DNA of 64,000 nucleotides from an uncultured Verrucomicrobiae bacterium (GCA_963719495.1 CAVRCI010000003.1:1-64000); one strand, 5' to 3'; positions 30,313 through 63,487 are shown, counted from the first letter of the stretch. Notes: generated by a model not told the origin, from the sequence alone. Numbers and translations: made by a program.

Positions 30313-30313
30313 C

Positions 30314-35343: not shown

Positions 35344-35355
35344 TCTACGCGTAAA
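35344..35355. promoter_or_regulatory. Palindromic operator-like site, copy 1
   Basis: TCTACGCGTAAA about 55 nt upstream of the TPR-ExbBD operon. Confidence 0.7.
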
Positions 35356-35379
35356 CAGCTGGCCGGTCCGTCGGGCGGA

Positions 35380-36576
35380 TCAGCCCGGGATCCAGAACGT
35401 TTCCTGCGTTCTCAGCGGGCGGGGCTCCCCGGCGACCTGGAGCGTAATGGTGGCGGCGGGAGAGTCGGGCAGCGGGTCGGACAATCCGCGGAGGAACAGA
35501 CGTTCGCCGCACTGCTCGAACTCGACCGGTTCGCCGGTCGCCTGCCAGCGGGCGCTCAACACTTCGTTGCCGATCTCGGCGAGGCAAAATTCGTCACCCG
35601 GGCAGCGGATCAGATGCACGAAAACCTGCCGACCCTTCGTGGTGATCAGCGCGCTGTTGTTCCACGAGAACGGCGAGCGATCCGAATCCGCCAGAATGTC
35701 GTGATGCCGCCGGACCCAGCGCCCGGCCTCTTCGATGATGCGGACACTTGCCTCCGGGATGCGTCCGTCGCCGCGCGGCCCGACGTTGAGCAGCAAATTC
35801 CCGGCGCTGCCCGCGGTGGTGAGAAGCATTCGGACGACGTCGGCGGGCGTCTTCCAGTTCGTGTCGCCGACGTGCCAGCCCCAGTTATCGTTCAGCGTCA
35901 TGCACGCCTCCCACGGGCCCTGCTTCGCGCTGAGCGACTGCTCGGAGCAGCGAAAATCGAACGGCTCACCGTTGCGTTCGTTGATCAGGATGCCGGGCTG
36001 GAGTTCCTTCGCCAGCCGGTTGGTGTCGCCCCCGTCGCGGAGGGCCGGAATCCCGCCGTCGTACCAGAGAACGTCGATCCGGCCGTAGTTCGTCATGAGC
36101 TCGCGCATCTGCGCCTGCACAAACGAGGCAAAGCCCCGCCGCGCGTCCTCCGAAGCCCACTCATCCGTCCAGTCCCTCGCGTAGGGCGTCGGATAGTCGG
36201 CGTGAAACCAATCCGCGACGGAGTAGTAAAATCCCACGCGCAGCCCCTCGGCCCGCACCGCCTCGACAAACGGTCGCAGCAGGTCGCGACATGCGCCGAT
36301 CTTCGCCGACTGAAAATCCGTCGTCGCCGTGTCCCAGAGACAAAACCCATCGTGATGCCGCGTCGTGAGAACGACGTATTTCATACCGCCCCGCTTCGCC
36401 AAGCGCGCCCATTCAGCAGGATCGTAATTCTCCGCGGTGAACGCCGCGGCGTAACGGTCCCGGTATTCCTCGAAGGGAATGCACTCGCGATTGGCGACCC
36501 ATTCACCCCGCCCGGCAACCGAGTAGGGCCCCCAATGCACAAAAAGACCGTAGCGCGCCGCCGAGAACCATTCCAT
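35380..36576 (-). CDS. Alpha-L-fucosidase (GH29)
   Basis: YGLFVHWG, GMKYVVLTTRHHDGFCLW, GFYYS, LMTNYGRIDVLWYDG, INER, WEACMT, NLLLNVGP. Confidence 0.95.
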   Translation of the reverse strand: MEWFSAARYGLFVHWGPYSVAGRGEWVANRECIPFEEYRDRYAAAFTAENYDPAEWARLAKRGGMKYVVLTTRHHDGFCLWDTATTDFQSAKIGACRDLLRPFVEAVRAEGLRVGFYYSVADWFHADYPTPYARDWTDEWASEDARRGFASFVQAQMRELMTNYGRIDVLWYDGGIPALRDGGDTNRLAKELQPGILINERNGEPFDFRCSEQSLSAKQGPWEACMTLNDNWGWHVGDTNWKTPADVVRMLLTTAGSAGNLLLNVGPRGDGRIPEASVRIIEEAGRWVRRHHDILADSDRSPFSWNNSALITTKGRQVFVHLIRCPGDEFCLAEIGNEVLSARWQATGEPVEFEQCGERLFLRGLSDPLPDSPAATITLQVAGEPRPLRTQETFWIPG

Positions 36577-36631
36577 GCGCCAGACCTAGCAAAGTCGGCG
36601 GCTTCGACCAGCGTGGAGACGATTGGAAGCG

Positions 36632-36643
36632 TTTACGCGTAAA
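36632..36643. promoter_or_regulatory. Palindromic operator-like site, copy 2
   Basis: Perfect palindrome TTTACGCGTAAA about 55 nt upstream of the fucosidase. Confidence 0.75.
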
Positions 36644-36760
36644 TTTCTCCAAGGCGTTTCATCGACCGCGCCCCACGGCTTCCGCCTCGTCGTTCATCTG
36701 TTGAGCCCATCTTTGTTCTTCGGGAATTTCCAGCCGAGCCGAGCGGTATTCCAAACCACT

Positions 36761-37387
36761 CTAGATCTCCGGGCGCAAAATCTCGTTATCTGCATATCGC
36801 GGATCCTTCAACAGAGACTGCAGGCATTCCTCCGCTCGCGGCGAAGGATGGCAGGAAATCGCGGTAAGCGCCTCACTTTGGGCCGTATCCAAAGACTCGA
36901 ACGGACCGCCCTCCGGTCTGTCCATCAGTCGACTAATTGCGCTCGGCATCGATCGACCATCCCAATAGTCGAAGGACGCTCGCTCGATGAGAAAATCCAA
37001 AGATTCTGGAGTGCCCTGCCAAGACGCGACGCGATACGCGAAACTTTGGTTGTTCATCCGGTTCCGATCAGCCGGTCCGCTCGCTCGTTCGAAAGACTCA
37101 ATCATTTCCACCAAACGAGGGAGATCATCTGGATTCTACCTCCCCGCCGCGATGGCACCAATCGCAATGAACGCCGAATGCATTAAACGTGGACTCAACG
37201 CATCCGGTTGCTGAACGATGGCGAGCAATGCGGAAAGCGTGGTTTCGTCCGAGGCTAATATGTAGTAAGCTGGATGCTGTCTTCTGCAACGGCGAGAGGT
37301 ATCTCCTGTTTCAGATATTTCAGAATCCACGGAATGACTTCCGAAGAATGGCGGGTGTTCTCGAAATATGCCAGAGGCTGAATTCAA
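36761..37387 (-). pseudogene. Lower-GC interrupted ORF remnants of unknown function
   Basis: Two short same-strand ORFs (36761-37114, 37136-37387) with atypical composition; no recognised motif. Confidence 0.3.
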
Positions 37388-37501
37388 AATGATGATTTTT
37401 CATTTCCGGTCACATCCGTGCCGGGAGGTTCCGTGCATGGCGGTTCGCCGACGTCGCTCCCCACCACTAAGTGATACGCGGTGCAGATGTGGGTCAGCGC
37501 C

Positions 37502-37659
37502 AAATGGCACTGCTTTGAGCGGATTTTCGGGAAAACGGTCGTGAGACATCTGCTGGTTGGGCTCGAGCCCAGGCTAATATCATTTGATCCTACCGGGCAG
37601 CGGCGAGCGTTGTGCATAAAACGAGAACGGTCGACGATCTGCTTAAAGCAGTGCCATTC
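37502..37659. mobile_element. MITE-like element (158 bp) with IS4-like terminal inverted repeats
   Basis: AAATGGCACTGCTTTGAGC ... GCTTAAAGCAGTGCCATTC; flanks GGGTCAGCGCC / GGGTCAGGAGG. Confidence 0.65.
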
Positions 37660-37848
37660 GGGTCAGGAGGAGGGAAAGAAGCGGGATTCGCATCACGTAT
37701 CCCGTTTTTATCGGGAGCGTCATGGCTCGGATAGTTTTCGATGTGTTTGCGCGTATCGTGACTCGCCGAGAAGGTCGGTTACGACGATTCAATGATCGGC
37801 GCGAAAGGGATCGGGGAGACGAAGGTCGGTCGGAAACGTCCCGCAGAA

Positions 37849-37860
37849 TTTACGCGTAAA
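37849..37860. promoter_or_regulatory. Palindromic operator-like site, copy 3
   Basis: Perfect TTTACGCGTAAA upstream of the ABC operon. Confidence 0.75.
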
Positions 37861-37923
37861 AGCAGCGCAGGCACCGAGGGAATGGCTTCTCCTCCCTGGT
37901 CTGGTAACCTGCCCGTTTCCCCG

Positions 37924-40698
37924 ATGCCACGCCCACAGATTCGCCCTCGATTCCCGCTTCTCCACTGCCTGATCGCGGCGGCGATGCTCGTGGTGCCGGG
38001 CCTCACGGGAACCCGAGCGGCTGAATCCGACGGCGCGAATCGAGCGGACGAGGACAAAGCGACCATTCGCGTCACCGGCTACACGCCGTGGGCTTGGAAC
38101 GCCCTCACCCGCGCCCGGCGCTCGGCCCTTCAGGATTGGCTGGCCACCGAGCGCGATCCGGTGACGGGCGAACTCTGGGGCGACCTCATCAAGCTCGCGC
38201 CCGACAACCAGCTCAGCTTCCCGGGATTCAGCCTCAAGCTCCTCAACTTTGCCGCCGGCACGGGCGAGGAGGTCATCACGACGCCGGACGTCGGCGTGCA
38301 GGATTTTTTTCGCTACCGCGACCAGCGGTTCCTCCTGCCACTCAATCCCTTCATCTGGGAGATCCGCGCGGACGAGGCCGGCAAGCCGCTGCGGGCAAAG
38401 GACGGGAGCTGGGACTACGTCCTCGATGCCCGCGGCGAACGCGTGGTGGTCTGGCCCGACTGGGAAAAGGTCCCCGCGGCCTTCCGGGACATCGTCACGA
38501 ACGACGGCGACGTCTTCGGCCTCCCGATCCAGCGCACGGGGGTGGGACTCATGTATCGACGCGACATGTTCGAGCGGGCCGGGCTCGACCCCGATGCTCC
38601 GCCGCGTGATTGGGATGAGCTGTTCGACGTGGCCCTGCGTATCTCCGCGACTGGCGAAGGAGAGTCTCGCCGGTATGGCCTCATGTTGGCCGGCGATTTC
38701 GTGGAACTTCACACCCTCGGCGGCGGCGGAGAGAGCGCCCGGGTCGAGGAATACCCGGACGGCGCGACTCGCTGGGTCGCGGACTTCGCCTCGCCCGAAC
38801 GCCTCGCCGCGCTGCGCTTCGTCCGCCGTTGCACGCTCACGAAATGGATCGTGACGCCGGACGGCACGCCGCTGATCGTCTGGGAGCCGGATCGCGAGAC
38901 GCAGCCAGTGGTCGAGCATCCTTCCCTCGGAATCGGTCGTTGGGAGGGTGAACCCGGTCGCTCTGGAAGCCAGATCATTTTCCCCGACGCGGCCTACGGA
39001 CCCGCCCAGATCCGCACCGGCGTCGCCTTTAATCAATTGGGCGGATACGGCGTCGGCAACGACGACAAGTGGTACAACCTCTTCGCCGAACCGGAGGGCC
39101 GGCTGGCGATGAGCGTGCAGACGCCGGCGGCCATGATTCAGCAGCTGCAGGCCCTCGACCCCACGCAGGTCGGGTTCGGTCCAATCCCCCGCGGAAAGGC
39201 GGGTGCATTCATCCGCGCCGAGGGGCAGATCGGATCGCTGAACTACGTGCTGGCCGACAATCCCGAGCGGGCCCGGCTGTCCTGGGCCGTGCTCAGTTTC
39301 CTGGCCAGTCGCACTTACGAACGCCTCGCGGTCCATTCCTACGTGCGGGAGGGAGAAGGCGTGGCCGACACCCTCGACCCACGGCTACTCGTCGAGGAAG
39401 GTTACGAGACCATCACCGAGCAGATGTCGCCTTCCATGAAGGCCTATTGGGAGGGACTCGAGTCGTCGACGAAAGCGCCCATAGTGGCGCGGAATTTCCA
39501 GACCTTGTCCGACCAATACCTCCAGCCGATCTACCGGCGCGCGTCGCTGGAGCCAGACTACGACTACCTCACGGCCATCACCGGGGCGGAGGAGCAAGTG
39601 CAGAAGCGGCTGGATTTCCAGATGGGCGATTATCAGCGCGTCGAGGGGCGGGGCTGGATCATCACGGCGATCGTCGTCATTTTCGGCGCCGTCATCATTT
39701 TCAGCTGGGTCGCGTTCCGCTCGCTCTCCCAGCGCTACGACACTTCCAGTCAACGACCCGCGAAACGAAGCCGCGCGGACCGACGCCGAGCCCTCACGGC
39801 CTACTCCCTGCTGGCTCCGGGGATGATCCTCATCCTGGTCTTCAGCTACTACCCGATCCTCATTTCGCTGCCAATCGCGTTCCAGGATTACTACGTGGTC
39901 GGTGAAAGCGAGTGGATCGGTATCGCCAACTTCGTCGAGGTCTTCAGCAATCCGGTGACGTGGATCTCGCTCGCAAAAGCATTCTATTACCTGGGGCTCA
40001 CGGCCGCGGTCGGCTTCCTGGCCCCGGTGGTGCTCGCAATTCTGTTGAGCGAAACGTTCTCCATGCGCTACCTGCTGCGCACCATCTACTACCTGCCCGC
40101 CGTGGTCGCCGGGATTGTCATGCTGCTCATGTGGCGCCGGTTCTTCGAAGCGACCCCGGAAGGAATGGTCAACCGGCTCGTCATGCCGCTGATGGAACTC
40201 TGGAACAAAGTCGCGCCCGGCATCCGGTGGGACATCGCCGTCGAGCCCGTCGATTGGCTGCATCACCCGATCCTGGGCATTCCCAGCATCGTCTTCGTCG
40301 GCATCTGGGGCGGGATGGGACCCGGGATGCTGATTTATCTCGCGGCGCTCAAGAGCGTGCCGGAGGAACTCTACGAAGCGGCGGAACTCGATGGGGCCGG
40401 CTGGTGGGCGCGCTTCAGCCAGATTACCCTCTCTTATCTCCGTCCGCTTCTCGTGATCAACTTTGTCGGAGCGGTCATCGGAGCCTTCCAAGCTTCGGGA
40501 AACATTCTGGCGCTCTCCGGGAATTTCCCGGCGACCTACACCTTCGCGGTGCACATTTGGTTCGAGGCCTTCGGGCTCGGGCAATTCGGTGTCGGCACGG
40601 CTCTTTCGTGGGTGATGGCCAGTCTGCTGGTCGGCTTCACCGTCTGGCAGCTCCGGATCCTTCGCGACGTCGAATTCAAAAAAGCGGGAGCAGACTGA
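37924..40698 (+). CDS. Sugar ABC transporter: solute-binding protein fused to permease (start uncertain, 37792-37984)
   Basis: SBP part LMYRRDMFERAGLDPDAPPRDWDEL; permease part WIGIANF, LRTIYYLP, EAA loop ELYEAAELDGA. Confidence 0.9.
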   Translation: MPRPQIRPRFPLLHCLIAAAMLVVPGLTGTRAAESDGANRADEDKATIRVTGYTPWAWNALTRARRSALQDWLATERDPVTGELWGDLIKLAPDNQLSFPGFSLKLLNFAAGTGEEVITTPDVGVQDFFRYRDQRFLLPLNPFIWEIRADEAGKPLRAKDGSWDYVLDARGERVVVWPDWEKVPAAFRDIVTNDGDVFGLPIQRTGVGLMYRRDMFERAGLDPDAPPRDWDELFDVALRISATGEGESRRYGLMLAGDFVELHTLGGGGESARVEEYPDGATRWVADFASPERLAALRFVRRCTLTKWIVTPDGTPLIVWEPDRETQPVVEHPSLGIGRWEGEPGRSGSQIIFPDAAYGPAQIRTGVAFNQLGGYGVGNDDKWYNLFAEPEGRLAMSVQTPAAMIQQLQALDPTQVGFGPIPRGKAGAFIRAEGQIGSLNYVLADNPERARLSWAVLSFLASRTYERLAVHSYVREGEGVADTLDPRLLVEEGYETITEQMSPSMKAYWEGLESSTKAPIVARNFQTLSDQYLQPIYRRASLEPDYDYLTAITGAEEQVQKRLDFQMGDYQRVEGRGWIITAIVVIFGAVIIFSWVAFRSLSQRYDTSSQRPAKRSRADRRRALTAYSLLAPGMILILVFSYYPILISLPIAFQDYYVVGESEWIGIANFVEVFSNPVTWISLAKAFYYLGLTAAVGFLAPVVLAILLSETFSMRYLLRTIYYLPAVVAGIVMLLMWRRFFEATPEGMVNRLVMPLMELWNKVAPGIRWDIAVEPVDWLHHPILGIPSIVFVGIWGGMGPGMLIYLAALKSVPEELYEAAELDGAGWWARFSQITLSYLRPLLVINFVGAVIGAFQASGNILALSGNFPATYTFAVHIWFEAFGLGQFGVGTALSWVMASLLVGFTVWQLRILRDVEFKKAGAD

Positions 40699-40699
40699 C

Positions 40700-42580
40700 A
40701 TGCCGATCATCTCAAACATCGAAAGGCGGACCACGGCGGGCCGCTTTGCCGTCGGCACGATCTACGCCGTGCTCATCATCGGGGCCATTTCGATGCTGTA
40801 TCCGTTCCTGCTCATGCTCCGCCTGGCGACAGCCGACGCCGTGGATCAGCATTCGCTCTCCCCCCTCCCCGCCTTCTGGTGGGACGAGGACGTGCTGGTG
40901 CGGAAATACTTGGAGAATCAGTACAGCGAAAAGGGCCAGCAACTCCCCTACGCCTACGGCTCGACCGAATGGACGGCGTTCTCCCAGGCCGACGGATTCT
41001 GGGAAAAGTCGTTCAAGCCGCTCGAATCCGTCCCCTTCGCCGCGATCGAACGCCGCACCAACGACTACCGCGAATACCTCGCCCAGGCCGACCTCCGCTT
41101 CCTCTACCCCCAGTTCACCTACATCCCGGGCCGCGGCCAGTCGGATCGCTGGATTGCCTTCTGGCTCGCCGAGAAGGAAGGCGTCCCGCCCGACACCTAC
41201 CGCTACTTCGAGCGGCCCCGGCCCGATTGGAAACGCCGCGACTGGACCCCGACCTACGGCAAGCCCTGGAACGACTGGCAGGAATGGCTGGCCTGGCTCC
41301 AGCCCGCCGAACGCTACGCCTTCTCCTCGAGCTACCCGTGGCAGCGTTTTCTGGGACTGAAATACGACACGGTCGCCGCCCTCAACGCCGCGCACGGGTC
41401 GGACCACACCAGCTTTGCCGTCGGCCCGGTCCTGCCGGTCGATCCGCCGGACGCGGATTCGCCGCTCCGGGCGGATTGGATCGAGTTCGTCGAAACCAGC
41501 TACCCGCTCTACTGGCAGCAACTCACCCCCGGGGCGGTCGCGGCCAACGAGCTCTCCTGGCGGAACTGGCTGCGGACCGATAAAAACATCCGCAACCCGG
41601 CCGATTGGAAAGCCTTCACCGGTCTCGAAGTCGCGTCACTCGACGAGATCGAACTGTCGGCGGAAATGCCGCCGAACGAAATTCTCGCCCGGTGGTGGAC
41701 CGAATACGTTGCCGACGAAATCGGCTGGGAGGGCCGCCGCATCCTCTCCAGCGAGGCGGATTTCCACGCGCTGCTCCGGGGCAAATACCCCGACCTCGCC
41801 GCGCTCAACGCCGCCTGGGACACGTCCTACACCGACTGGAGCGAAATCCGTTTCCCGCTCGCGTCCGCCGATTACCACACGCTCAAGACCTACGGGTGGC
41901 GCATCAAGAGCTACCTGACCTTCAAAAATTTCGAGATCGTCCTCCAGTCCCTCGTCTTCGAGGGCGGCGCGTTCTTCAACACGTTCGTCGTCATCTCGCT
42001 CAGCATCCTCACCTCGCTCACGGTCAATCCGCTCGCCGCCTACGCGCTCTCGCGCTTCCGGCTCCGCAATTCCAACAAGATCCTCATCTTCCTCCTCGCG
42101 ACCATGGCGCTCCCGGCTGAAGTCGCCATCGTGCCCAGCTTCCTCCTCGTCCGCGACCTCGGCCTCACCGACAACTACCTCGCCCTCGTCCTGCCGCAAG
42201 CCGCCAACGCCTTCAGCATCTTCCTCCTCAAGGGCTTCTTCGACTCCCTGCCGTCGGAACTCTACGAAGCCGCCCTGCTGGACGGAGCCGGCGAATTCAC
42301 GCTCTTCTTCCGCATCACGATTCCCCTCTCGATGCCCATCATCGCGGTCACGCTTCTCAGCACCACCGTGGCGTCCTACAACCTCTTCATGCCGGCCGTG
42401 ATGTACATCGGCGACGTCACGATGTGGCCAATCTCGACGAAAATCTACGAGATCAACCAGACCAACAGCATCGGCGTCGGCATGGCCGCCCTCGTGGTCG
42501 CCAGCATCTTCCCGCTCCTCGTCTTCACCTTCTGCCAACGCATCATCATGCGCGGCATCATTCTTCCGACGATGAAATAG
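40700..42580 (+). CDS. Carbohydrate ABC permease with large periplasmic insertion
   Basis: SMLYPFLLM; about 370-aa insert; AAYALSR, IFLLKGFFDSLPSELYEAALLDGA. Confidence 0.9.
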   Translation: MPIISNIERRTTAGRFAVGTIYAVLIIGAISMLYPFLLMLRLATADAVDQHSLSPLPAFWWDEDVLVRKYLENQYSEKGQQLPYAYGSTEWTAFSQADGFWEKSFKPLESVPFAAIERRTNDYREYLAQADLRFLYPQFTYIPGRGQSDRWIAFWLAEKEGVPPDTYRYFERPRPDWKRRDWTPTYGKPWNDWQEWLAWLQPAERYAFSSSYPWQRFLGLKYDTVAALNAAHGSDHTSFAVGPVLPVDPPDADSPLRADWIEFVETSYPLYWQQLTPGAVAANELSWRNWLRTDKNIRNPADWKAFTGLEVASLDEIELSAEMPPNEILARWWTEYVADEIGWEGRRILSSEADFHALLRGKYPDLAALNAAWDTSYTDWSEIRFPLASADYHTLKTYGWRIKSYLTFKNFEIVLQSLVFEGGAFFNTFVVISLSILTSLTVNPLAAYALSRFRLRNSNKILIFLLATMALPAEVAIVPSFLLVRDLGLTDNYLALVLPQAANAFSIFLLKGFFDSLPSELYEAALLDGAGEFTLFFRITIPLSMPIIAVTLLSTTVASYNLFMPAVMYIGDVTMWPISTKIYEINQTNSIGVGMAALVVASIFPLLVFTFCQRIIMRGIILPTMK

Positions 42581-42603
42581 CCGCCCGGCAGTCCGCAACG
42601 ATT

Positions 42604-47707: not shown

Positions 47708-47863
47708 CGTTCACTCGCCGCGCAAGACAAGATCGAAGCCCCTTTTCGGCAGGTTCAGGGTGTGATTGCGAAAATTGTCGGTCATGCGGCGCGCTGGGTG
47801 AAGAAGTGGGCGCGGAAGGGATTCTGCGCCCTACCTTTGGTGACCGTTTTCGCGGTCACACCC

Positions 47864-48143
47864 GAATGGCACTGCTTTAAGCGGTTCGTCGGCGGAAAAC
47901 GGGTTACTGGTTCACCGGATGACTTGAGTCCAAACTGGCTTATTTACCCTCGCAGGGCAGTTGCGCGCAGTGTGCAGAAAGTCAGAGATTCTTCGGATTA
48001 CCTCAGAATGACAGCTTGGGGGGACGGGAGACATTCGTTGCGAAGCAACGTCTTCGTCCAAACCTGTCATCCTGAATGCAATGAAGGATCTCTGACTTTT
48101 CAGGACGAGAGCGGTCGAAAACTCGCTTAAAACAGTGCCATTC
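47864..48143. mobile_element. MITE-like element (280 bp), same TIRs as 37502, with 11-bp target duplication and an internal REP pair
   Basis: GAATGGCACTGCTTTAAGCG ... CGCTTAAAACAGTGCCATTC; flanks CGGTCACACCC (47853-47863) / CGATCACACCC (48144-48154). Confidence 0.75.
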
Positions 48144-48160
48144 CGATCACACCCGCAGAT

Positions 48161-49276: not shown

Positions 49277-49401
49277 GCAAAGAGAATGGTCGGTGTCAAG
49301 TCACGCTGCCGGTGAAGTGCGGTTGCGTCGGCGGGTTGGACGGCGATTGTTGGCGGCTGGAAGCCACCACTCCGGTGCCCGCGATGCCCGAACTGCTCCA
49401 T

Positions 49402-49439
49402 AAATCGAAAAGTCCCACCGCCCGTTGGGCGGTGGGACT
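49402..49439 (-). terminator. Intrinsic terminator after the PEP-CTERM gene
   Basis: 13-bp perfect stem AGTCCCACCGCCC/GGGCGGTGGGACT followed by TTTCGATTT on the minus strand. Confidence 0.75.
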
Positions 49440-49486
49440 GATCAGAAGTCCAGTTGATCGACGCGCCGCTTGGGCGCGCTATCGGT

Positions 49487-50434: not shown

Positions 50435-50705
50435 ACTTTCCAACGATGGTTCGACAGACCGCTCCTGTCATTACCGTTTTACGTCAAAGTCTTACTTTTT
50501 CGCGTCTAAGGCGTTTTTTTTGCAAAACGAAGAGGAACCACAGATTGCAGGCACGGGTGCAGATAATGAAGAGGCGTCCCTGCCATCTGCGCCCATCCGT
50601 GCCATCTGCGGTCAATCCATCCCTTCTCGGCGGGAGGCCGGGGTGAGGGCAAGCATCCGAGCAATGGAGTTCGCGCCGCCGCGCCCCACCAGACCCGCCG
50701 CGAAT

Positions 50706-53116: not shown

Positions 53117-53142
53117 GGGTCTCCTCACGTCGACCACTACGG
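53117..53142. repeat. REP half-element, near-identical to 62471-62496
   Basis: GGGTCTCCTCACGTCGACC(A/G)CTACGG, one mismatch over 26 nt. Confidence 0.7.
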
Positions 53143-53157: not shown

Positions 53158-53169
53158 TCTACACGTATA
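53158..53169. promoter_or_regulatory. Palindromic operator-like site, copy 5
   Basis: TCTACACGTATA about 48 nt upstream of the ATG at 53217. Confidence 0.65.
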
Positions 53170-55136: not shown

Positions 55137-55150
55137 ACCCACGGCTTGCC

Positions 55151-56731
55151 ATGACTATCTCCCGACCCCTCGTCCTCGCCACGGCGGCGGGAGCGCTGTT
55201 CTCGTTCACCACCCTCCCCCTGCGGGCCCAGAACGATCCCTTCACCGAAGTCCAGGTGAACGTCCTGCCGAAGAAGGGGATGAAGTTCGATCCGCTGGCG
55301 ATCTACCGCGAGGATCAGGCCGTGTTGCAGGGCGCGTTTGGCACGAGCGCGGACGACACGGTCACCGATTTGGCGACGCTCCCCGACGGACGCGTCCTGG
55401 CCATCGGGACGCTCGGCGCGCCCGCCGAGGCGGCGAAGCGTTTTCCCGTCACGATGGCGGACGGGGTCGGCGCGACGGGATCGGCGTTTCTCGCGGTCTT
55501 TGATCCGACCTTCCGCCAGATGGAGCGGCTGGTTCCGCTTCCCAAGGACATCACGCGCCCCGCGTGCATCCGGGTTGCCCCGGACGGCACGGTGTTTGTC
55601 GGCGGCGATGCCGCGGCTGTGGACCGCCTCGCCGTGATGAAATTTTCGCCAGCTCTCGACGTCATGCTCTGGCGCGCCGACGCGGTTGGTGACCGCATGA
55701 CCGGCCTCGCGCTCATGCCCGACGGCTCCGTCGTCGTCGCCCCGGATCAAGCGCCCTTCATCTCACGCATCCGCGCCGACGGCGGTGGCCTCATTCCGTT
55801 CGGGAACGAAAAACACTTCCGCGTGGATGGGGCCAATCCGCAGGTGGCGGACAAATACTGGGGCGGCAACGGCTACTCGGACCTCGGATATCGCGGCTGC
55901 ACGTATCAGCGAGGCGGCTCCGGCGGGATCGGCGTGACCGCGGACGGCAACCTCGTCTTCTTCACGAGTAATTTCGTGAGGCTGCCCGACGGCAGTCCGG
56001 ACTTCGATCCGATGCTGCTGAAGTTCACGCCGTCCGGCGAATTACTCTGGGCCAGGAACCTGCTCCAGGGCCTGCCATCCCCGTCGGACCAGAAGTCGCC
56101 CTACCTCACCGTCGATCCGCACTCAGGCGATCTGCTGCTCACCCTACGCCAGCACGGAAGCTTTGCGAACAACATGGCCGTCGGTCCGCAAGCCTACCTC
56201 ACCACGGAATCCTGGCTCACCGGCAACATCATGATCGGCTGGATCGCCCGGGTCGACGCGGGCACCGGCGACGTGAAAGCGGGCACGATGTATTTCCCCG
56301 ACATGGGCCGGCCGCCGAAGGGCGGGAAGCGCACCGCGAACTCGCTCTTCCCCTCCGCCGTGCGCGCCGACGCGGCCGGTCGCATCTACGTGACTGGTGC
56401 GACGGCCTACAAGCTCACCACCACCCGGCACGCCTTTCAGCCCGAGCCGCTGGGCGGCAGCGGATTCCTCACCGTCTTCGATCCCGATCTTTCGCGCGTC
56501 CTCTACGCGAATTTGCTCACAGGTCAGGGATTCAACCTCCAGGGAACGGCGCTCACGGTGACGGACGGCGGCCCGATCGTCGCGGCCGCTCTCAAGCGCG
56601 GCGCCAAACCACCCTTCGGATTCGTGGCGGCCAACGCGGAGAAAACCGACTTTCTCTCGCCCGAACCGACGGGCGAAAAAGACGCGATGCTCTCGCTGTT
56701 CCCCTCCCAAACGTGGTTCGCCGAAGACTGA
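55151..56731 (+). CDS. Secreted beta-propeller (SBBP-like) protein
   Basis: Signal peptide; repeated blades PDGRVL, PDGTVFVGG, PDGSVVV, ADGNLV, DAAGRIYVTG. Confidence 0.75.
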   Translation: MTISRPLVLATAAGALFSFTTLPLRAQNDPFTEVQVNVLPKKGMKFDPLAIYREDQAVLQGAFGTSADDTVTDLATLPDGRVLAIGTLGAPAEAAKRFPVTMADGVGATGSAFLAVFDPTFRQMERLVPLPKDITRPACIRVAPDGTVFVGGDAAAVDRLAVMKFSPALDVMLWRADAVGDRMTGLALMPDGSVVVAPDQAPFISRIRADGGGLIPFGNEKHFRVDGANPQVADKYWGGNGYSDLGYRGCTYQRGGSGGIGVTADGNLVFFTSNFVRLPDGSPDFDPMLLKFTPSGELLWARNLLQGLPSPSDQKSPYLTVDPHSGDLLLTLRQHGSFANNMAVGPQAYLTTESWLTGNIMIGWIARVDAGTGDVKAGTMYFPDMGRPPKGGKRTANSLFPSAVRADAAGRIYVTGATAYKLTTTRHAFQPEPLGGSGFLTVFDPDLSRVLYANLLTGQGFNLQGTALTVTDGGPIVAAALKRGAKPPFGFVAANAEKTDFLSPEPTGEKDAMLSLFPSQTWFAED

Positions 56732-57523
56732 ACTCAAACGGGGAGAGGACGTCTCGTCCTCTCGATCCAGACGTGAGGACGAGACGTCCTCACTCCGCTT
56801 ATCCGACTACCTCGTGGGCGGCAGATCGGTCGTCGAGATCGCCACGTCGCGGATCCCCACCACCCCGCGACCAAGCAACCGGATGGCGAAAAAGACGCAA
56901 TGCTCTCGCTGTTCCCCTCCCAAACGTGGTTCGCCGAAGACTGAACTCAAACGGGGAGAGGACGTCTCGTCCTCTCGATCCAGACGTGAGGACGAGACGT
57001 CCTCACTCCGCTTATCCGACTACTTCGTGGGCGGCAGATCGGTCGTCGAGATCGCCACGTCTCGGATCCCCACCACCCCGCGACCAAGCAACCGGATGGC
57101 GAAAAAGACGCGATGCTCTCGCTGTTCCCCTCCCAAACGTGGTTCGCCGAAGACTGAGCTCAAACGGGGAGAGGACGTCTCGTCCTCTCGATCCAGACGT
57201 GAGGACGAGACGTCCTCACTCCGCTTATCCGACTACTTCGTGGGCGGCAGATCGGTCGTCGAGATCGCCACGTCGCGGATCCCCACCACCCCGCGACCAA
57301 GCAACCGGATGGCGAAAAAGACGCAATGCTCTCGCTGTTCCCCTCCCAAACGTGGTTCGCCGAAGACTGAACTCAAACGGGGAGAGGACGTCTCGTCCTC
57401 TCGATCCAGACGTGAGGACGAGACGTCCTCACTCCGCTTATCCGACTACTTCGTGGGCGGCAGATCGGTCGTCGAGATCGCCACGTCTCGGATCCCCACC
57501 ACCCCGCGACCAAGCAACCGGAT
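56672..57523. repeat. Tandem array of four 213-bp units
   Basis: Units start at 56672, 56885, 57098 and 57311. Each contains the left gene's 3' end, a REP palindrome and the right gene's 3' end. Confidence 0.97.
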
Positions 57524-59614
57524 GAATAGCCTGCCCCCACTGGAACGCGGATACTCGCCCTTCGGCACGACGGCTTCGTAGGAGATCCAAGCCCCCGCCG
57601 GCATCGGGACCAACGGCGGAAAGACCACGAGATTGCGCCCCCGCGCTTTCTTCCCCTCGTAATAGGCGGTGTCGTATTGCACTTCCAGCCGTGTGAATTG
57701 ACCTTCGACCCGGATCTGGAACGCCACCCGGAGGTTTTCGTCCACCGTCGCGGCCGCTTCCCGCCGACCGTCGGCGGCAAAAAACGCAAACCCAACCCCC
57801 TGCCCGAAGGAAGTGACCCCGTCGCGCGGTCGGCGAAAGACACTGTGCCGCGCCGGATCGTGCCAGCTCTGCACGAACGTGGCCCCAAGGCCGGGATCGC
57901 CCGCGGTGGCGGGGATCACCTGAAAGAGGTCGAACGGAACGGGCGCGACCCCCCACGAGGCCGAAAGGCCGGGCAGACCGTCGCGCCGCCCCGGATCGAA
58001 CAAGCCCTCCGGTGGGTTCTCCGGATCCCAGGACGGCATGAGCCCAAAAGCCACGTCGGGACGGTTCGGGAAACCCGAACTGTTCTGACTGCTCCCACCC
58101 TGCTGCGTGAAGTAGCGCGAGGCATCCGCCGTCCCGCCCGCCGCCTTGTTCGCCGTGGGCACGGCGCAGAAGCTCACGTCGAGCGGCAGGGCCAGCTTCG
58201 ACACCGGTTCGGCGGCGGTGCTCCGCACCGGGGTGGGCGCGCCAAACTCGACGGCCCCTTTCGCCGTTCCGAGCGCGTAGAAGATCCGCCCGTCCGGGCT
58301 CGACCAGATGAGATCCACGATCCCGTCGGCGTTCCAATCGCAGGGCTGCGGCGCGCAGTAGGCGAGAAAAGCCGAGTCCTTCGTTCCCTCGAACGTGATC
58401 ACCTTCGAGTCGGTCATCGGCGTTTCGCCACTGGTCCAGCGCCCCTCCGCATTCGGGAAAACGGTGAGCAATCCCTCGCTGTCGTTCACGAACAGGTCGA
58501 AGTGCCCGTCGCCGTCCCAATCTGCCGCAAACGGAGCGAGAAACGTGCGCTCGCCACCCACCATGAGCAACTGCTCGCGGGGTTGACCGGTCGAACGGGA
58601 GGGGAACGTAAACAGCCGGATGGCGTTCACCGAATAGGTGCCTTCACCAACGAGAATGTCCCGGAGGCCGTCGCGGTTCCAGTCCACGACGAACGGCGTC
58701 GCGTAGTTCATGAACGCCACCGGCTCGTTCGTCGTCTTTCGGGTGACCAGGCTGTGCTGCGGCACGAGCTTGAGCACGATCCGATCATTGCTCTTCGAGT
58801 AGGTGCGGAAATCCGGCGCGCCGGGACGCCCGCCATTCAGCGCCAGATAAAGATTTCCCTGCGCGTCGCCCGCGACGAAATCCGCCATCCCATCCCCGTT
58901 CCAATCGCACGGCGCGGCCACGGCGCGCAGTTGCCGGTAGCCGTTGAGAACCGCCACCGTTGCCCCCGCCTCGCCGTCGGCCGCAACTTCCTCCCACGGA
59001 TACGGCAGCCCGGCTTCGGCCTCCTCCTCGATTTCGTCGTCGGCGCGCTGCTGGGCCGATGATCGTGATTTGTTCTCGCGTTTCAGCCGCTCGAGCGCGT
59101 CCTCGCGCTGCTTATCGATCCGTTCCTTCTGCCGCTCCTCGTTCCGCGTGAGCTGCTTTTTTTCCGTTCCCTCCAGTGTGATCGCGCGGAAGGTCGAGCG
59201 CTCGTTGTCGAGGAGGAGCGGCATCACCTCGCCGACGCCAAAGGCGGGCGAGCCGGGCGAGCCAACGTTTTTCCAAAACCAGAAAAACCCCGCGCCATCC
59301 GGCGACACCAGGTCCGGAAGGTTGTCGCCATCGAGATCGACGAGCGAAGCCGAGTGTCCCATCGGCGCGTAGGCAAACTGATTGCTCTTGTCGACGTGCA
59401 TGTTCACGCCCTCCACCGCCACCGATTTCCGCAACCAGCCGTACGCATCCACCCCCAACCACGGATACACCGCCTCGACCGTGCGCTCGAACCGTCCGTT
59501 CGCGAGGAAGTTCTCCCCGCTCATCCCGTCCATACTGCCGTTCCCCTGCGCCCAGGTGCCCCCCGCCGCCAACGCCAACGCAATGAGGCCGAAAATACCC
59601 CCGCGGACGCTCAC
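57446..59614 (-). CDS. Secreted FG-GAP/VCBS repeat protein
   Basis: GTG start overlaps the PIN stop; signal peptide; DLDGDNLPDL, DWNGDGMADF, DWNRDGLRDI, DWDGDGHFDL, DWNADGIVDL. Confidence 0.88.
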   Translation of the reverse strand: MSVRGGIFGLIALALAAGGTWAQGNGSMDGMSGENFLANGRFERTVEAVYPWLGVDAYGWLRKSVAVEGVNMHVDKSNQFAYAPMGHSASLVDLDGDNLPDLVSPDGAGFFWFWKNVGSPGSPAFGVGEVMPLLLDNERSTFRAITLEGTEKKQLTRNEERQKERIDKQREDALERLKRENKSRSSAQQRADDEIEEEAEAGLPYPWEEVAADGEAGATVAVLNGYRQLRAVAAPCDWNGDGMADFVAGDAQGNLYLALNGGRPGAPDFRTYSKSNDRIVLKLVPQHSLVTRKTTNEPVAFMNYATPFVVDWNRDGLRDILVGEGTYSVNAIRLFTFPSRSTGQPREQLLMVGGERTFLAPFAADWDGDGHFDLFVNDSEGLLTVFPNAEGRWTSGETPMTDSKVITFEGTKDSAFLAYCAPQPCDWNADGIVDLIWSSPDGRIFYALGTAKGAVEFGAPTPVRSTAAEPVSKLALPLDVSFCAVPTANKAAGGTADASRYFTQQGGSSQNSSGFPNRPDVAFGLMPSWDPENPPEGLFDPGRRDGLPGLSASWGVAPVPFDLFQVIPATAGDPGLGATFVQSWHDPARHSVFRRPRDGVTSFGQGVGFAFFAADGRREAAATVDENLRVAFQIRVEGQFTRLEVQYDTAYYEGKKARGRNLVVFPPLVPMPAGAWISYEAVVPKGEYPRSSGGRLFIRLLGRGVVGIRDVAISTTDLPPTK

Positions 59615-60054
59615 TCGAATCCCGCCACATCCAGGACGCGCAGCCCGACCTTCTCCGCGAGAATCCGTTGGCGGGCATCGAAGCTGATAAAAATCTCCGG
59701 TTCCAACTGCGCGGCACACGCGACGTGCAACACATCCAACGTCCGGCAACCCAGCTCCGGAGTGTGGGCGGAGAATTGCCGAAAGGACTCCATCAACGCC
59801 AAGCGGTCGATCTCTGGAAAATAGTAGAACCCTTGGTGTTTCCGGCGCTGGAAGAGCGCGATCTGCCCGTCCGCGTCCGTGACGCTGATATCGTTCCAAA
59901 AGACCTTGAGTCGCAACGCGTTGATCAACTCCGCTTCCTGTAATTCCCAGACCGGCAGCGGATCGTCCTGACCGACGACCAGCCGCTCCAACCCAACCGA
60001 ACCCGTCTCGAGCAGGTAAAGTTTGATCAGGGCGCTGGTGTCGAGATAGATCAC
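59611..60054 (-). CDS. vapC: PIN-domain toxin (VapC family)
   Basis: MIYLDTSALIKLY, E in WELQEAE, RTLDVLHVACA, FISFDARQ. Confidence 0.92.
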   Translation of the reverse strand: MIYLDTSALIKLYLLETGSVGLERLVVGQDDPLPVWELQEAELINALRLKVFWNDISVTDADGQIALFQRRKHQGFYYFPEIDRLALMESFRQFSAHTPELGCRTLDVLHVACAAQLEPEIFISFDARQRILAEKVGLRVLDVAGFE

Positions 60055-60284
60055 CAGCGGCCCTCGCGGTCGGCTCGCACGGTTTCAGCCCCGGATCGAC
60101 CCTTGCAGCGAAGAGCCGTTGCCAGGTGGTCCTCCCACTCGAGAATCTTTCGCGGCCCGGCGGGGACGAGTCTGACGGCGGGCTTGCCGCGATTGGAGAC
60201 TTCGAAGATCTCACCCTGCTTGACCCGCGCCTCGATAGTCGACCAATGCGCTTTCATCTCGCGAACCGAAATTGTCGTTATCAC
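60051..60284 (-). CDS. Phd/YefM-family antitoxin
   Basis: TISVREMKAHWS...VKQGE...VSNRGKPAVRLVP; 4-nt overlap with the PIN gene. Confidence 0.88.
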   Translation of the reverse strand: MITTISVREMKAHWSTIEARVKQGEIFEVSNRGKPAVRLVPAGPRKILEWEDHLATALRCKGRSGAETVRADREGRW

Positions 60285-60391
60285 TAAAAATGGATATCAT
60301 AGGTGTTACAAAACGTCAAACTTCGGGAGTTTGCTCCGCCCCCCTCCGCCCCCCTCCGCTCCACTGACCGGCCCGATAGCGAGCGATTGCC

Positions 60392-62341
60392 TCACAGCTT
60401 CCCCCCCTGCTGATTAAGGATCGTGGGCCAGCGGCCGAGCATGTAGACGAGGATGTTCGACGCCAGCGCGTAAGAGTTGCGGATGTTGCCGTCGTCGATG
60501 CCGCGGAAAAACTCATCCCGGTAATCCCACATGAGATTCACCCACCGCCCGCGCCCATCACTGCCGCCGATCTGGAAGGCATTGTTGACGAGCGTCATGT
60601 CGTAACGCAGGAAATTCCCGTAGGCGTTCTTCGTGAGCACCACCGACACGACCCCGGGCCGGATCTCGATCACCTCGATGGGCGACTGGTAATACTGCAT
60701 CCCGGGCGGCAGCTCCGCGAGGTCGAAGTAGGCGTCCTCGCCGCTCAGGAACGTCGTGTCACGCCCCCGCAACGGGTGAAAATCCTTGTCCACGTCGGGA
60801 ATCACGCGCCGCATCTCGCGGCGAAACGCGACGTTGAATTTCGACCCCTCGCCCGCGAAGCCCGAGTCGCCCCAGATCGCGCCGCCGCGCAACACGTATT
60901 GAAAGAGCGTGTCCACCTCCGTCTCCGTGAGCGTGAAATCGTCGTTCCCGGTGAAGTAGATGAACGGCGGCATCGGCTTCACGTCGAGCAGGTATTCGAC
61001 GAGAAAATCCGTGCTCTCCGGATTGCCCGGCTCGGGGTTCCAGATGTATCCGCGCATCGAATAAAAATCCCCGCCCGGCAGGTTCTCCCGCAGCTTCGTG
61101 CGCAGGGCCTCGCGCCCCTCCGCGTTCCACGTCATCGTCTTCGACGCCTTGTCGTAGGTGTAGGGCACCAGCTTCGGATCGAGCACCACGGCGGTCGGTT
61201 TACGCCGACCCTTGATCGCGTCGTTCGACGCCGCGCGCAGAAATTGCAGCATGTTCGACATCGCCCCCGGCGTGAATTCCCACAGCGCGCCGCGGGCATC
61301 GGTCGTCTTCCCATTCACGTCGCGATACCCCCAGCCGTAGCTGATGAACGGCCCCGTCGTCGGATCGAAGTCGGACTGCTGCTCGTAGAGTTTGTAATTC
61401 CCGTCCGAGCTGTCCGGCAGTCCGACGGCGGATTTTTCGATCTGCCGCCCATTGTCCGCCCGCCGCCAATCGAGCGCCGCGTACCAGTCGCCGGAGTGGA
61501 TGACGAAGTAGCAGGAAAATTCGTTGATCGTCTTGAGCGTTTTCCCGCGGCCCGAGATGCCGATACCGCCCTCGCCCGACCCGATCCATTCCCGCAGTCC
61601 CTTGCCCAGGCCCGATCCTTCGCCGAAGCCACTGGACACCCCGCCGCCCCCGCCGCCCACCACGCTCGAAGATGGAGCCGGCGGTCCGCCGCCCACGACC
61701 GGCGCCGCCACGCTGAACTGCAGCGGGCTCGCTTGCGCGGCCATCGTCGTGATCGCCGTGAACATCGCGTCCGTCTGCATCGCTCCCACCACCACCGACA
61801 CCTGGGGGTCGAACGTGGGCGCGCCCCCGCTCGCCGAACTGCCCGGCGGCGACGCCTCCACGGAAGGCTCCAAAAATCCGTCGTCCGTCGCCTCGAAGTC
61901 GGATTTCTCAGTCTGCAACGGTGCCAGCACGACCAGAAACAACGCCACGACCACACCCGTATGAAACAGGATCGATATGCCTATGGGGCGGGACGCCCGC
62001 AGGCGATCCACCCACCCGACGGGTGCCGCCGGCACCTCCGCGGCTCGCGCGATGAACCCACACTCGACCTCGCCGAAACTGATCCGGTCCCCCCGCCGCA
62101 ATCTCACCGGATCGACGACGCGATCCCCGTTCACCATTGTCCCATTCGTCGACCCCAGATCCTCCAGCACCACCGCGCCGTCCTCGCCCCGCGTGATCCG
62201 CGCGTGGCGCGACGAAACCGACGAATCGTCGAGCACGATGTCGTTGTCCGACGTGCGCCCGACCGTCGCCTCCCCGACTTTCAACGGGACATCCTGGGTC
62301 GGCGAATCTGGAAAATCGAAACTCAGGAAAAAATCAGCCAC
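60392..62341 (-). CDS. FHA domain + TM + linker + DUF4159-like protein
   Basis: FHA motifs VGR, SVSSRHA, DLGSTNGTMVNG; TM IGISILFHTGVV; C-terminal HSGDW, PFIYFTG, YVLRGGAIWGD, FRREMRRVIP, NILVY. Confidence 0.85.
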   Translation of the reverse strand: MADFFLSFDFPDSPTQDVPLKVGEATVGRTSDNDIVLDDSSVSSRHARITRGEDGAVVLEDLGSTNGTMVNGDRVVDPVRLRRGDRISFGEVECGFIARAAEVPAAPVGWVDRLRASRPIGISILFHTGVVVALFLVVLAPLQTEKSDFEATDDGFLEPSVEASPPGSSASGGAPTFDPQVSVVVGAMQTDAMFTAITTMAAQASPLQFSVAAPVVGGGPPAPSSSVVGGGGGGVSSGFGEGSGLGKGLREWIGSGEGGIGISGRGKTLKTINEFSCYFVIHSGDWYAALDWRRADNGRQIEKSAVGLPDSSDGNYKLYEQQSDFDPTTGPFISYGWGYRDVNGKTTDARGALWEFTPGAMSNMLQFLRAASNDAIKGRRKPTAVVLDPKLVPYTYDKASKTMTWNAEGREALRTKLRENLPGGDFYSMRGYIWNPEPGNPESTDFLVEYLLDVKPMPPFIYFTGNDDFTLTETEVDTLFQYVLRGGAIWGDSGFAGEGSKFNVAFRREMRRVIPDVDKDFHPLRGRDTTFLSGEDAYFDLAELPPGMQYYQSPIEVIEIRPGVVSVVLTKNAYGNFLRYDMTLVNNAFQIGGSDGRGRWVNLMWDYRDEFFRGIDDGNIRNSYALASNILVYMLGRWPTILNQQGGKL

Positions 62342-62391
62342 GCGCCACGCAGAATGCACCAGACGATCCCCCGATCAAACCAACGCCGAAA

Positions 62392-62403
62392 TGTACGCGT
62401 AGA
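62392..62403. promoter_or_regulatory. Palindromic operator-like site, copy 6
   Basis: TCTACGCGTACA on the minus strand, about 50 nt upstream of the FHA gene. Confidence 0.65.
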
Positions 62404-62565
62404 ACTCGCGACCTGTCACCCGGGTTCACCGCGTAGTAGCGGAGGTCACGACGCTTCACCCTCCGCCCAAGGGTCTCCTCACGTCGACCGCTACGGACCA
62501 CGGCAAAGAAAAGGGCGGACCCGCAACTTGCAGGTCCGCCCGGAAGAAGGGACGCGTTCGCCTGA

Positions 62566-63417
62566 TCAGCTCTCGCGCCGACGGCGGCGCTGGAGAGCGA
62601 TGATTCCCATCCCGCCAGCCACAAATAGTGCGACCGAGCCAGGCTCGGGAACCGCCACGATGTCACCGAAATCCTTGGTGAAGCGAACTTCGTCCCAAGT
62701 GTATCCTCCGCCGGTGTCACCGCCGTAGTAGGCCTCGTCAATCGCGTTTCCACTGCCGTCACGAGCAAACTTCGAATCCAAAATCGACCCATCCGCGGTG
62801 CCCAGGTTGGTCAGGTCGGGATTGAACCAAAACTCGATCTGCGTATCACTCGGACTTGCGCCCGTCCCCTTGGTCACCTTGGCGAGAAATCCAACGGTGC
62901 TGCCGACCGTGTAAGCCCCACCGGACACCTCCACCACCTGATTGCCGCCGGACGTCTGCCACGCCTTCGCATAAATATTCGTATCCGTGAAACCAAAGCC
63001 GAGGATGTTGACGACGCTACCACCCTCCAAACGCATCTCGGTGAACCCGCCCGCCGTGAGCGCAGTATCGATCCGGCCCAGCGTGAACATCCAGTAAACC
63101 TCTCCGTCGGGGTCGCTGGAGAAATCGTAGGACGTCGTCTGCGAGGCGGAGCGGGAACCGGCGGAAGCAAAATCATACACCAACGCACCGCCGCTCGGCG
63201 CGCTCAGGTCGGAATAGGTCAATCCGCTCGAGGGCTCATAGGAAATCGTTCCGGTGTTGTCCGACCAGCCGTCACCCGAGAGATCGTCCTGAAAGTCCAA
63301 CGGACTCGCGCCGTAGTCGAACGATTGATCGTAGATGGGCACCGCGAAGGCTGCGGACGAAACGACGGTCACCAAGCTGGCGGCGATGAGCAGTGGGGAG
63401 GCTTTGCGGGATTTCAT
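62566..63417 (-). CDS. PEP-CTERM sorting domain protein
   Basis: Signal peptide; WDEVRF...AVPEPGSVALFVAGGMGIIALQRRRRRES. Confidence 0.92.
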   Translation of the reverse strand: MKSRKASPLLIAASLVTVVSSAAFAVPIYDQSFDYGASPLDFQDDLSGDGWSDNTGTISYEPSSGLTYSDLSAPSGGALVYDFASAGSRSASQTTSYDFSSDPDGEVYWMFTLGRIDTALTAGGFTEMRLEGGSVVNILGFGFTDTNIYAKAWQTSGGNQVVEVSGGAYTVGSTVGFLAKVTKGTGASPSDTQIEFWFNPDLTNLGTADGSILDSKFARDGSGNAIDEAYYGGDTGGGYTWDEVRFTKDFGDIVAVPEPGSVALFVAGGMGIIALQRRRRRES

Positions 63418-63475
63418 TGCCGCAAATATTCGCCCGGAAAACCATCAAGGCAACTCCAACCAGGAAAACCTGGAG

Positions 63476-63487
63476 TTTACACGTAAA
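63476..63487. promoter_or_regulatory. Palindromic operator-like site, copy 7
   Basis: TTTACACGTAAA in the divergent promoter between the PEP-CTERM gene and the FAD oxidoreductase. Confidence 0.72.

Follow-up and report, generated by a model that had tools for sequence, protein, structure and literature searches.

A palindromic promoter box as the predicted operator of a LacI-family regulator in a glycan-utilisation system of an uncultured Verrucomicrobiae bacterium

Introduction

This work concerns a stretch of 64,000 nucleotides from an uncultured Verrucomicrobiae bacterium (GCA_963719495.1, CAVRCI010000003.1:1-64000), here called the window, in which seven copies of a short palindromic box lie before genes for glycan breakdown, sugar transport and a TolQ/TolR-like motor. 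The window corresponds to positions 1-64000 of contig C3 of the assembly, denoted G000, which comprises 4.54 Mb in 16 contigs. Gene regulation in Verrucomicrobia is almost unstudied, and a search of literature listings and abstracts found no paper on the box or on LacI regulons in this group. We describe the boxes and the genes behind them, their distribution in the genome and in related genomes, and a LacI-family protein encoded on another contig as the likely regulator.

Results

Boxes and genes in the window

A sequence-only reading of the window had claimed seven copies of the palindrome, and all of them were recovered by pattern matching (Table 1). The pattern TYTACRCGTAWA gave 8 strand matches in the window, representing 6 sites of which two are perfect palindromes, compared to a mean of 0.00 in 100 shuffles. 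When up to 2 mismatches to the consensus were allowed, 7 matches were obtained (shuffle mean 0.57, largest 3) and the site at 62392 was also recovered. The same reading had found no full copy in the first 35 kb, and the best candidate there, TTTCCGCGAAAA at 21504, does indeed not contain the invariant TAC/GTA core; it had also described the motif as AT-rich amid GC-rich DNA, which agrees with the GC content of 0.58-0.69 in the window. The distance of 45-65 nt to a start codon that it gave for every copy holds only roughly. With start codons picked by signal peptide or by conservation in a related genome, G004, the gap is shorter at box 7 and, depending on the start chosen, at boxes 3 and 6. 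After correction of over-long starts of open reading frames (ORFs), 7/7 boxes are located outside coding sequence.

Table 1. Boxes, genes and other features of the window and of the boxed loci outside it. Positions without a contig name are those of the window.
Feature	Position	Strand	Content or location
Motor cassette 1	28830..35289	-	TPR protein, TolQ/ExbB-like, two ExbD/TolR-like, membrane-anchored vWA protein
Box 1, TCTACGCGTAAA	35344..35355		54 nt before TTG of TPR gene heading motor cassette 1 (-)
GH29 alpha-L-fucosidase	35380..36576	-	Pfam Alpha_L_fucos 3.5e-79
Box 2, perfect TTTACGCGTAAA	36632..36643		55 nt before ATG of GH29 fucosidase (-)
G000-specific insert, 1.2 kb, GC 0.545	36644..37848		Between perfect boxes 2 and 3
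Box 3, perfect TTTACGCGTAAA	37849..37860		21 or 63 nt before ATG of SBP-permease gene (+)
Sugar ABC unit	37882..44187	+	SBP-permease fusion, second permease, beta-helix (RHGA-like)/DUF4955 protein (Pfam)
DUF2264, DUF1961, XylR-like regulator, PEP-CTERM protein	44551..50443	-	Pfam
Box 4, TCTACACGTAAA	50706..50717		48 nt before ATG of beta-helix protein 929 (+)
Secreted beta-helix (RHGA-like) protein with Ig-like domains	50766..53105	+	Pfam; start from signal peptide
Box 5, TCTACACGTATA	53158..53169		47 nt before ATG of secreted 645-aa protein of no known family
Two secreted proteins	53217..56731	+	No Pfam family; 645 and 565 aa as longest ORFs
FHA-DUF4159 protein and FG-GAP repeat protein	57446..62359	-	Pfam
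Box 6, TGTACGCGTAGA on + (TCTACGCGTACA on -)	62392..62403		32 or 50 nt before FHA-DUF4159 gene (-)
PEP-CTERM protein, 283 aa	62566..63417	-	Pfam
Box 7, TTTACACGTAAA	63476..63487		Divergent region; 32 nt before FAD oxidoreductase (+), 58 nt before PEP-CTERM protein 283 (-)
FAD-dependent oxidoreductase	63520..64000	+	Pfam; continues past window, end at C3:65094
Boxed units of C3 past the window			SSF transporter, CE15-like esterase and GH28; three pilin-like (N_methyl) genes and 1370-aa protein; GFO oxidoreductase; 1120-aa protein and GH28; DUF5060 protein and PKD/beta-helix protein
Second motor cassette	C3:90891 onward		TPR-ExbB-ExbD-ExbD, behind box
Boxed units of C2			638-aa protein; LacI gene; GH42-like enzyme and PKD/beta-helix protein; DUF1349/Golvesin protein; DegT aminotransferase; MAM/PA14 protein; 477-aa protein
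LacI-family regulator, 343 aa	C2:678440-679471		Outside window

The gene calls are rough and our own, with Pfam searches on top. In motor cassette 1 these searches returned TPR families, MotA_ExbB (1.4e-22) and ExbD twice at ~1e-20, and the vWA families scored slightly under the Pfam cut-off (25.6 compared to 27 bits). Near the N-terminus of the vWA protein lies a membrane helix (...ISIVVHLLGG...) containing the S-x3-H pattern, which may correspond to the SHLS-type motif with a conserved His known from the vWA force-transducer cassette discussed below. For the second motor cassette, a Pfam scan of the 393-aa gene detected no PA14 domain. For the unit at 44551-50443, which is divergent from box 4, membership in a common regulon is uncertain, because the closest strong box (50706) lies 262 nt upstream and the box at 50497 is weak (score 10.2). 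This unit includes, at 48161-49276, the gene of the XylR-like regulator, in which Pfam recognised Peripla_BP_3 and an AraC-type helix-turn-helix (HTH).

An identical 18-mer is found near box 5 (53118-53135) and near box 6 (62472-62489), and recurs at C13:345486 and C3:79045; G004 has kept the copy of the 62.4-kb site. At 56672-57524, between convergent genes, the window contains four 213-bp tandem units (98% matches). Each unit has an inverted repeat that is REP-like, the 17-mer arm occurring in 28 copies genome-wide, and the array is present in G004 too.

Distribution and shape of the box in the genome

In the whole of G000 the strict pattern TNTACRCGTANA occurs at 15 distinct sites, all of them within C3:35344-90732 or C2:678411-697756. 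The looser TNTACNNGTANA has 22 matches, 17 of which fall within C3:35-91 kb and C2:678-698 kb, compared to 6-88 dispersed matches for five control patterns of equal composition. The sequence-only reading had named copies in front of housekeeping genes as the finding that would speak for a general promoter element, and no such pattern emerged when this was checked genome-wide. Its restriction to two loci marks the box as a local signal and not a general promoter element.

A scan of G000 with a weight matrix built from 18 sites placed 19 sites of the two loci and C4:334874 as the top 20, with a clear drop in score below them; this ranking is partly circular and not independent, because the matrix was trained on 18 of the ranked sites, 697745 and C4:334874 being the two outside the training set. 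The total is 19 boxes, 12 on C3 (7 of them in the window) and 7 on C2, including two degenerate copies of the TTTACGCATA type at 90795 and 679501. All are located in promoter regions. The C3 locus opens inside the window and extends 27 kb beyond its end, and the two loci together (C3:35344-90806 and C2:678411-697756) span ~76 kb, and the predicted regulon comprises some 45-50 genes in ~20 transcription units. The regulon of 28 kb proposed from the window was therefore too small.

The box is a 12-bp dyad, TnTAC-NN-GTAnA, in which T1, T3, A4, T9, A10 and A12 are invariant and C5 and G8 nearly so. The central pair is the most variable part (position 6 is G in 11, A in 6 and T in 1 of 18 sites), and the flanks hold almost no information: no conserved position was found within 39 nt on the upstream and 70 nt on the downstream side, and no second conserved element at sigma-like spacing on either side. 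An ECF-type promoter (GGAA ... CGT) was tried and rejected, as its spacing to the box is inconsistent. Nor did the 16 regulon promoter regions share a second motif clearly above shuffles, the best 7-mer occurring in 6 regions compared to a shuffle maximum of 5. The gap between box and start codon is 46-63 nt in 10 of the 16 well-defined units and 17-88 nt overall.

The candidate regulator

The C2 locus encodes a protein with the two parts that characterise the LacI family, an N-terminal LacI-type HTH and a C-terminal fold of the periplasmic-binding-protein type I, joined with a hinge helix. The HTH was recognised by Pfam (PF00356, residues 9-54, E 2.6e-13) and by sequence matches to LacI-family chains in the PDB. 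The Pfam match of the C-terminal part to Peripla_BP_3 is partial and under the cut-off (3.6e-4). When the structure model (pLDDT 86.7) was compared with the PDB by Foldseek, full-length matches were obtained to the Lac repressor, CcpA, CelR, PurR and RbsR (E 1e-15 to 1e-13). A box stands at the gene's own promoter, starting 2 nt after TTGACA and ending 17 nt before the ATG, the box at the G004 gene being placed likewise, and two further boxes follow downstream of the gene.

We consider it quite likely that the boxes are operators of this LacI-family regulator (C2:678440-679471) and that they define its regulon. The proposal that the palindrome is the operator of one dimeric regulator was thus supported, with the amendment that the likely regulator is encoded outside the window. 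This protein would bind the box, and the binding would respond to a sugar. The box is an even palindrome in promoter regions and is present at the regulator's own gene. These traits agree with a survey of 1303 LacI-family regulators, which reports palindromes of even length, finds 72% of the regulators autoregulated and places more than 75% of the sites upstream of the start codon by 30-140 nt (PMC4052901). The central pair does not conform. According to the same source 1173 of 1251 even LacI motifs have a central CG and 78 of 1251 are without a conserved CG (PMC4052901), whereas the centre here is a variable G|C and the conserved core is only 12 bp long; both features count against the assignment.

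Pfam scans of the two loci found one other regulator gene, the XylR-like gene in the window, which is also the sole regulator gene found within the C3 locus. It could be argued that this protein binds the boxes and that the LacI gene is a mere neighbour, but we regard this as very unlikely. AraC-type domains, which have two HTH units in each monomer, read asymmetric or directly repeated sites of ~17-20 bp. The box, a 12-bp dyad whose half-sites measure 5 bp and whose flanks are not conserved, does not resemble such a site. Moreover, no strong box precedes the XylR-like gene itself, the nearest being the one 262 nt before the upstream gene of its unit, apart from the weak copy at 50497.

Conservation in related genomes

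Among 41 genomes of the same order the box is enriched only in G000 (23 strand matches) and G004 (18), the other 39 having 0-5 matches. An ortholog of the LacI-family regulator is likewise limited to G000 and G004 (99% identity), the next best protein being 40% identical, and searches of a genome collection, a metagenome collection and 401 genomes from the class gave no closer ortholog beyond G004, the best match in the class being 44% identical. The strict sites of G004 all (13/13) lie within C1:255233-323614, and the two loci of G000 form one contiguous stretch there, C3:28830-83732 followed by C2:700443-671435 in reversed orientation, at 73-93% DNA identity. While this surrounding locus has diverged to that extent, the regulator protein encoded at G004:C1:322556-323584 is 99% identical to that of G000. 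Having to fit ~19 operators may constrain such a regulator to an unusual degree.

In the orthologous intergenic regions of G004 the box persists although its surroundings have diverged, and several of these regions were aligned by BLAST in the flanking genes only. In gene orientation box 1 reads TTTACACGTAGA in G004, boxes 6 and 7 have the counterparts TATACGCGTAAA, in the same place, and TGTACACGTAAA, and box 4 is conserved while the remainder of its intergenic region was not aligned. A single perfect box stands in the place of box 2. Box 5 is the exception, with only a weaker TATACCAGTAAA behind ~1 kb of extra DNA.

Of the genomes searched, only G000 and G004 have the whole island, including the XylR-like gene at orthologous identity. 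Since the XylR-like gene thus has the same occurrence as the boxes, co-occurrence fails to separate it from the LacI gene, and this weakens the assignment to the latter. The XylR-like ortholog of G004 (C1:267219-268317) matches as two pieces that overlap and differ in frame, the sugar-binding part being 67% and the DNA-binding part 84% identical; the gene is frameshifted or the assembly is in error. That the boxes are kept beside a split gene is weak evidence against the XylR-like protein as the binder, because the split may come from an assembly error.

Three structural differences between G000 and G004 touch boxes. The insert between boxes 2 and 3 is missing in G004, where one box serves both divergent genes; its ORFs matched no Pfam family, and it has no other copy in the genome except for a 32-42-nt stretch that recurs on four contigs. 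A second G000-specific insert (C2:679473-680582, GC 0.496) lies directly after the stop codon of the LacI gene and is bounded by the degenerate box at 679501 and a good box at 680581. The third difference is a synteny break that ends exactly at a box (C3:83721-83732; G004:C1:302447-302588); at this point G004 joins the C3-type to the C2-type locus, and G000 runs on for 14 kb with boxed genes. The two inserts were considered as copies of one mobile element, which was rejected because they have no mutual similarity and no other copy in the genome.

Two box-bounded low-GC inserts and a break ending at a box would also suit a hot spot of recombination or insertion, and most cores fit ACRYGT, as expected of a restriction-modification target. 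Such explanations, together with a promoter element of an alternative sigma factor, are to our mind scarcely credible. The box is limited to two functionally coherent loci and is always in promoter regions, the cores ACTCGT, ACCCGT and ACGCAT do not fit ACRYGT, the inserts share no sequence, and the box has no partner element at sigma-like spacing.

LacI homologues in other genera

If the box is the operator of the LacI-family regulator, related regulators may have it at their own genes. Loci with LacI homologues were scanned over 1.5 kb on each side: the regulator's own locus, the G004 ortholog, a paralog on contig C4 and 46 loci from other genomes, with homologues of 37-44% identity, making 49 (a 50th, L072, was dropped since no HTH was found). 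A box with a score of at least 15 was present in 11 of the 49, namely in the first three and in 8 of the 46 from other genomes. These 8 loci, in which the box is of the form TTTAC-NN-GTAAA, represent five genera, and ~0.5 would be expected by chance, based on ~12 such matches outside the regulon in the 4.54 Mb of G000. In 6 of these loci the HTH-coding segment begins 18-45 nt after the end of the box (18-61 nt when the C4 paralog is included), and in one genome (G006) it abuts the GTG start. These boxes need no XylR-like gene, which further argues against the XylR-like protein as the binder, and their position before LacI genes is equally difficult to reconcile with a recombination, restriction or sigma factor site.

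The C4 paralog (C4:333814-334821, 35% identical) has TTTACGGGTAAA 46 nt before its start codon (C4:334874-334885). No ortholog of this paralog was found at E 1e-60 in a search of 31 genomes (30 relatives). The regulon box at 697692 has the same central CC/GG as the box of the paralog, and cross-talk between the two LacI regulators is therefore possible.

The recognition helix VS[PRK][MVS][TS]VSLALR was associated with the box: 11 of the 17 loci with this helix have it, compared to 0 of the 32 with other helices, although the helix group was drawn post hoc from the same data and the result is a description and not a test. The half-sites are alike in all lineages, and the central pair is GC or AC here and GG/CC or GA/TC elsewhere. 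Two loci in which the helix is exactly that of the regulator or of its paralog (L013 and L047) have no box within 1.5 kb, nor have four of the eight g128 loci (L049, L050, L052 and L053), which counts against the assignment of the box to this regulator.

Position of the boxes relative to promoters

As to the mode of action, in the simplest case a LacI dimer would bind the dyad and block transcription of the ~20 units of the 76-kb regulon, and a sugar derived from the substrate would release it from the boxes. At the regulator's own gene the box between TTGACA (-35) and the ATG would give negative autoregulation. Provided that the box is the operator of this protein, repression appears somewhat the better expectation, with activation or anti-activation from an upstream position as a possible mode of lower probability. 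A look-up of sequencing runs for window positions 35200-41000 returned no RNA run, and one DNA run contained 0.36 of the sampled words.

Several observations do not agree with simple repression. Next to the start codons G000 and G004 have promoter-like blocks in common, while the spacers have diverged: TTGATC-16-CATCGT-6-ATG before the 477-aa protein, TTGCCT-18-TATGGT-9-ATG before the 1120-aa protein, TAGGGT-8-TTG before the TPR gene and TAGGTC-6-ATG before the GH29 gene. Genome-wide in G000, TAnnnT begins 16-12 nt before the ATG in 19 of 154 unambiguous starts, compared to ~3.5 expected, and Shine-Dalgarno-like tetramers are nearly absent before the starts (at most 2.6% at any position). Hexamer enrichment in 746 upstream regions gave no clear positional signal, the start codons being imprecise. 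From these patterns many mRNAs of G000 may be leaderless, and most boxes would therefore have their centres near -52 to -68, on the upstream side of the -35 region. The two halves of the box are also not equal. The half-site away from the gene is more degenerate, with C2 in 9 of 18 sites compared to G11 in 1 of 18, and A6 in 6 of 18 compared to T7 in 1 of 18. Such a bias is not predicted by a plain symmetric repressor.

It is thus conceivable, though we hold it to be rather unlikely, that the same LacI protein binds the boxes but acts at most target promoters by activation or anti-activation, from a site immediately before the -35 region, the promoters being leaderless, and that it represses only its own gene, where the box lies inside the promoter. 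The conserved blocks 5-9 nt before the start codons, the TAnnnT enrichment and the upstream position of the boxes in 10 of the 16 units if leaderless would all suit this explanation, as would the orientation bias. A sigma-70 consensus scan around boxes 1-3 (35250-37950) found 0 promoter-like sites, as might be expected of weak promoters needing help, but only 0.8 were expected and the scan is hence uninformative. On the other hand, while the footprints suggest an upstream position of the box, no helical phasing was seen across the gaps of 17-88 nt, and the box has no accompanying element at a constant distance. The TAGG-like blocks could serve as signals for translation, the leaderless starts being deduced from sequence patterns. 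The orientation bias (13 sites compared to 2) becomes weak, 9 compared to 2, when the sites of four divergent regions are removed. Local LacI-family regulators are, furthermore, overwhelmingly repressors. The survey cited above describes mostly repressors and predicts dual action for a few global regulators (PMC4052901). Repression is less certain than the assignment of the box to this protein, because the promoter-like blocks point to mRNAs that may be leaderless, in which case the box lies upstream of the -35 region.

Discussion

The boxes were originally proposed to unite the genes behind them in one glycan-utilisation system, and this proposal is supported: they are confined to two loci, placed in promoter regions, kept in G004 and linked to a LacI-family gene. 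The predicted regulon contains the GH29 fucosidase, two GH28 enzymes, a CE15-like glucuronyl esterase, a GH42-like enzyme and five RHGA-type beta-helix proteins, accompanied by DUF2264, DUF1961 and DUF5060/collagen-binding-type proteins, ABC and SSF transporters, oxidoreductases and the DegT aminotransferase. It further includes PEP-CTERM and pilin-like proteins, the FHA-DUF4159 protein and two TPR-TolQ-TolR-TolR motor cassettes. Among the genes of the two loci scanned by Pfam no sulfatase was found and no SusC/D pair was seen. The enzyme set, together with the lack of a sulfatase among the scanned genes, therefore points to a fucose- and uronic-acid-bearing heteropolysaccharide of plant or microbial origin as the probable substrate, as judged by Pfam names alone.

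In most respects the system resembles local LacI/GalR sugar regulons such as those of E. coli LacI, GalR and PurR or Bacillus CcpA. The regulator has an HTH and a sugar-binding fold, the operator is an even palindrome 17-88 nt before the starts, a box is present at the regulator's own gene, and the targets serve sugar catabolism and transport. It differs in its 12-bp core, whose centre is a variable G|C and not the conserved CG, and in the recognition helix TVSLALR, in which Leu replaces the Arg of LacI and most family members. With 19 operators and ~20 units it is also very large for a local regulon, and the regulator of G000 is located on another contig than most of its targets. Sites bound upstream are known in the family from GalR (OE at -60.5), from Cra and CcpA at activated genes and from CytR, which sits between activator sites as an anti-activator. 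The boxes described here would be alike in position if the mRNAs are leaderless, but they show no helical phasing and the starts are deduced. The XylR-like protein has the same architecture as E. coli XylR, a sugar-binding and an AraC DNA-binding domain, and its gene sits among glycan genes, yet it is not a likely binder of the palindrome.

Compared to the polysaccharide utilisation loci of Bacteroidota, which have SusC/D and are controlled by SusR, hybrid two-component systems or ECF/anti-sigma pairs, the predicted regulon is similar in that many hydrolases, esterases, binding proteins and transporters for one complex glycan would be regulated together. It differs in its motor cassettes, its pilin-like and PEP-CTERM proteins and its single LacI-type box, with no SusC/D among the scanned genes.

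A cassette with one gene each of TPR and tolQ-like type, two tolR-like genes and a vWA gene has been described in the Planctomycetes-Verrucomicrobia-Chlamydiae group in a 2025 paper, which gives its function as not known and suggests gliding (PMC12204202). The gene order of this vWA force-transducer cassette is matched by window positions 28830-35289. The difference is that here both this cassette and the second one, at C3:90891 onward, lie behind the boxes of a glycan regulon, and their predicted co-regulation suggests that the cassettes may have a role in glycan capture or import. One could go further and suppose that one LacI-type box commands the motor cassettes as energisers of polysaccharide capture and import, in loci here without the SusC/TonB style, and that the regulator is a ligand-dependent activator upstream of leaderless promoters; we offer this combination as a tentative and somewhat doubtful possibility.

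The likely LacI-type switch described here is in itself solid but conventional, and what is notable is that it would control two motor cassettes as well. As a whole the predicted regulon stands out by the shortness of an operator with no central CG, by its size, the recurrence of the box in five other genera and the unusual genes under its command. The box offers a testable predicted pair of operator and regulator, and a computational delimitation of a 76-kb glycan-utilisation system that lacks the SusC/D markers. Through predicted co-regulation it links two motor cassettes and pilin-like, PEP-CTERM and FHA-DUF4159 proteins to the predicted breakdown of a fucose- and uronic-acid-containing polysaccharide. 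As the box recurs beside related LacI genes in five other genera, it may be a general handle for finding such regulons.

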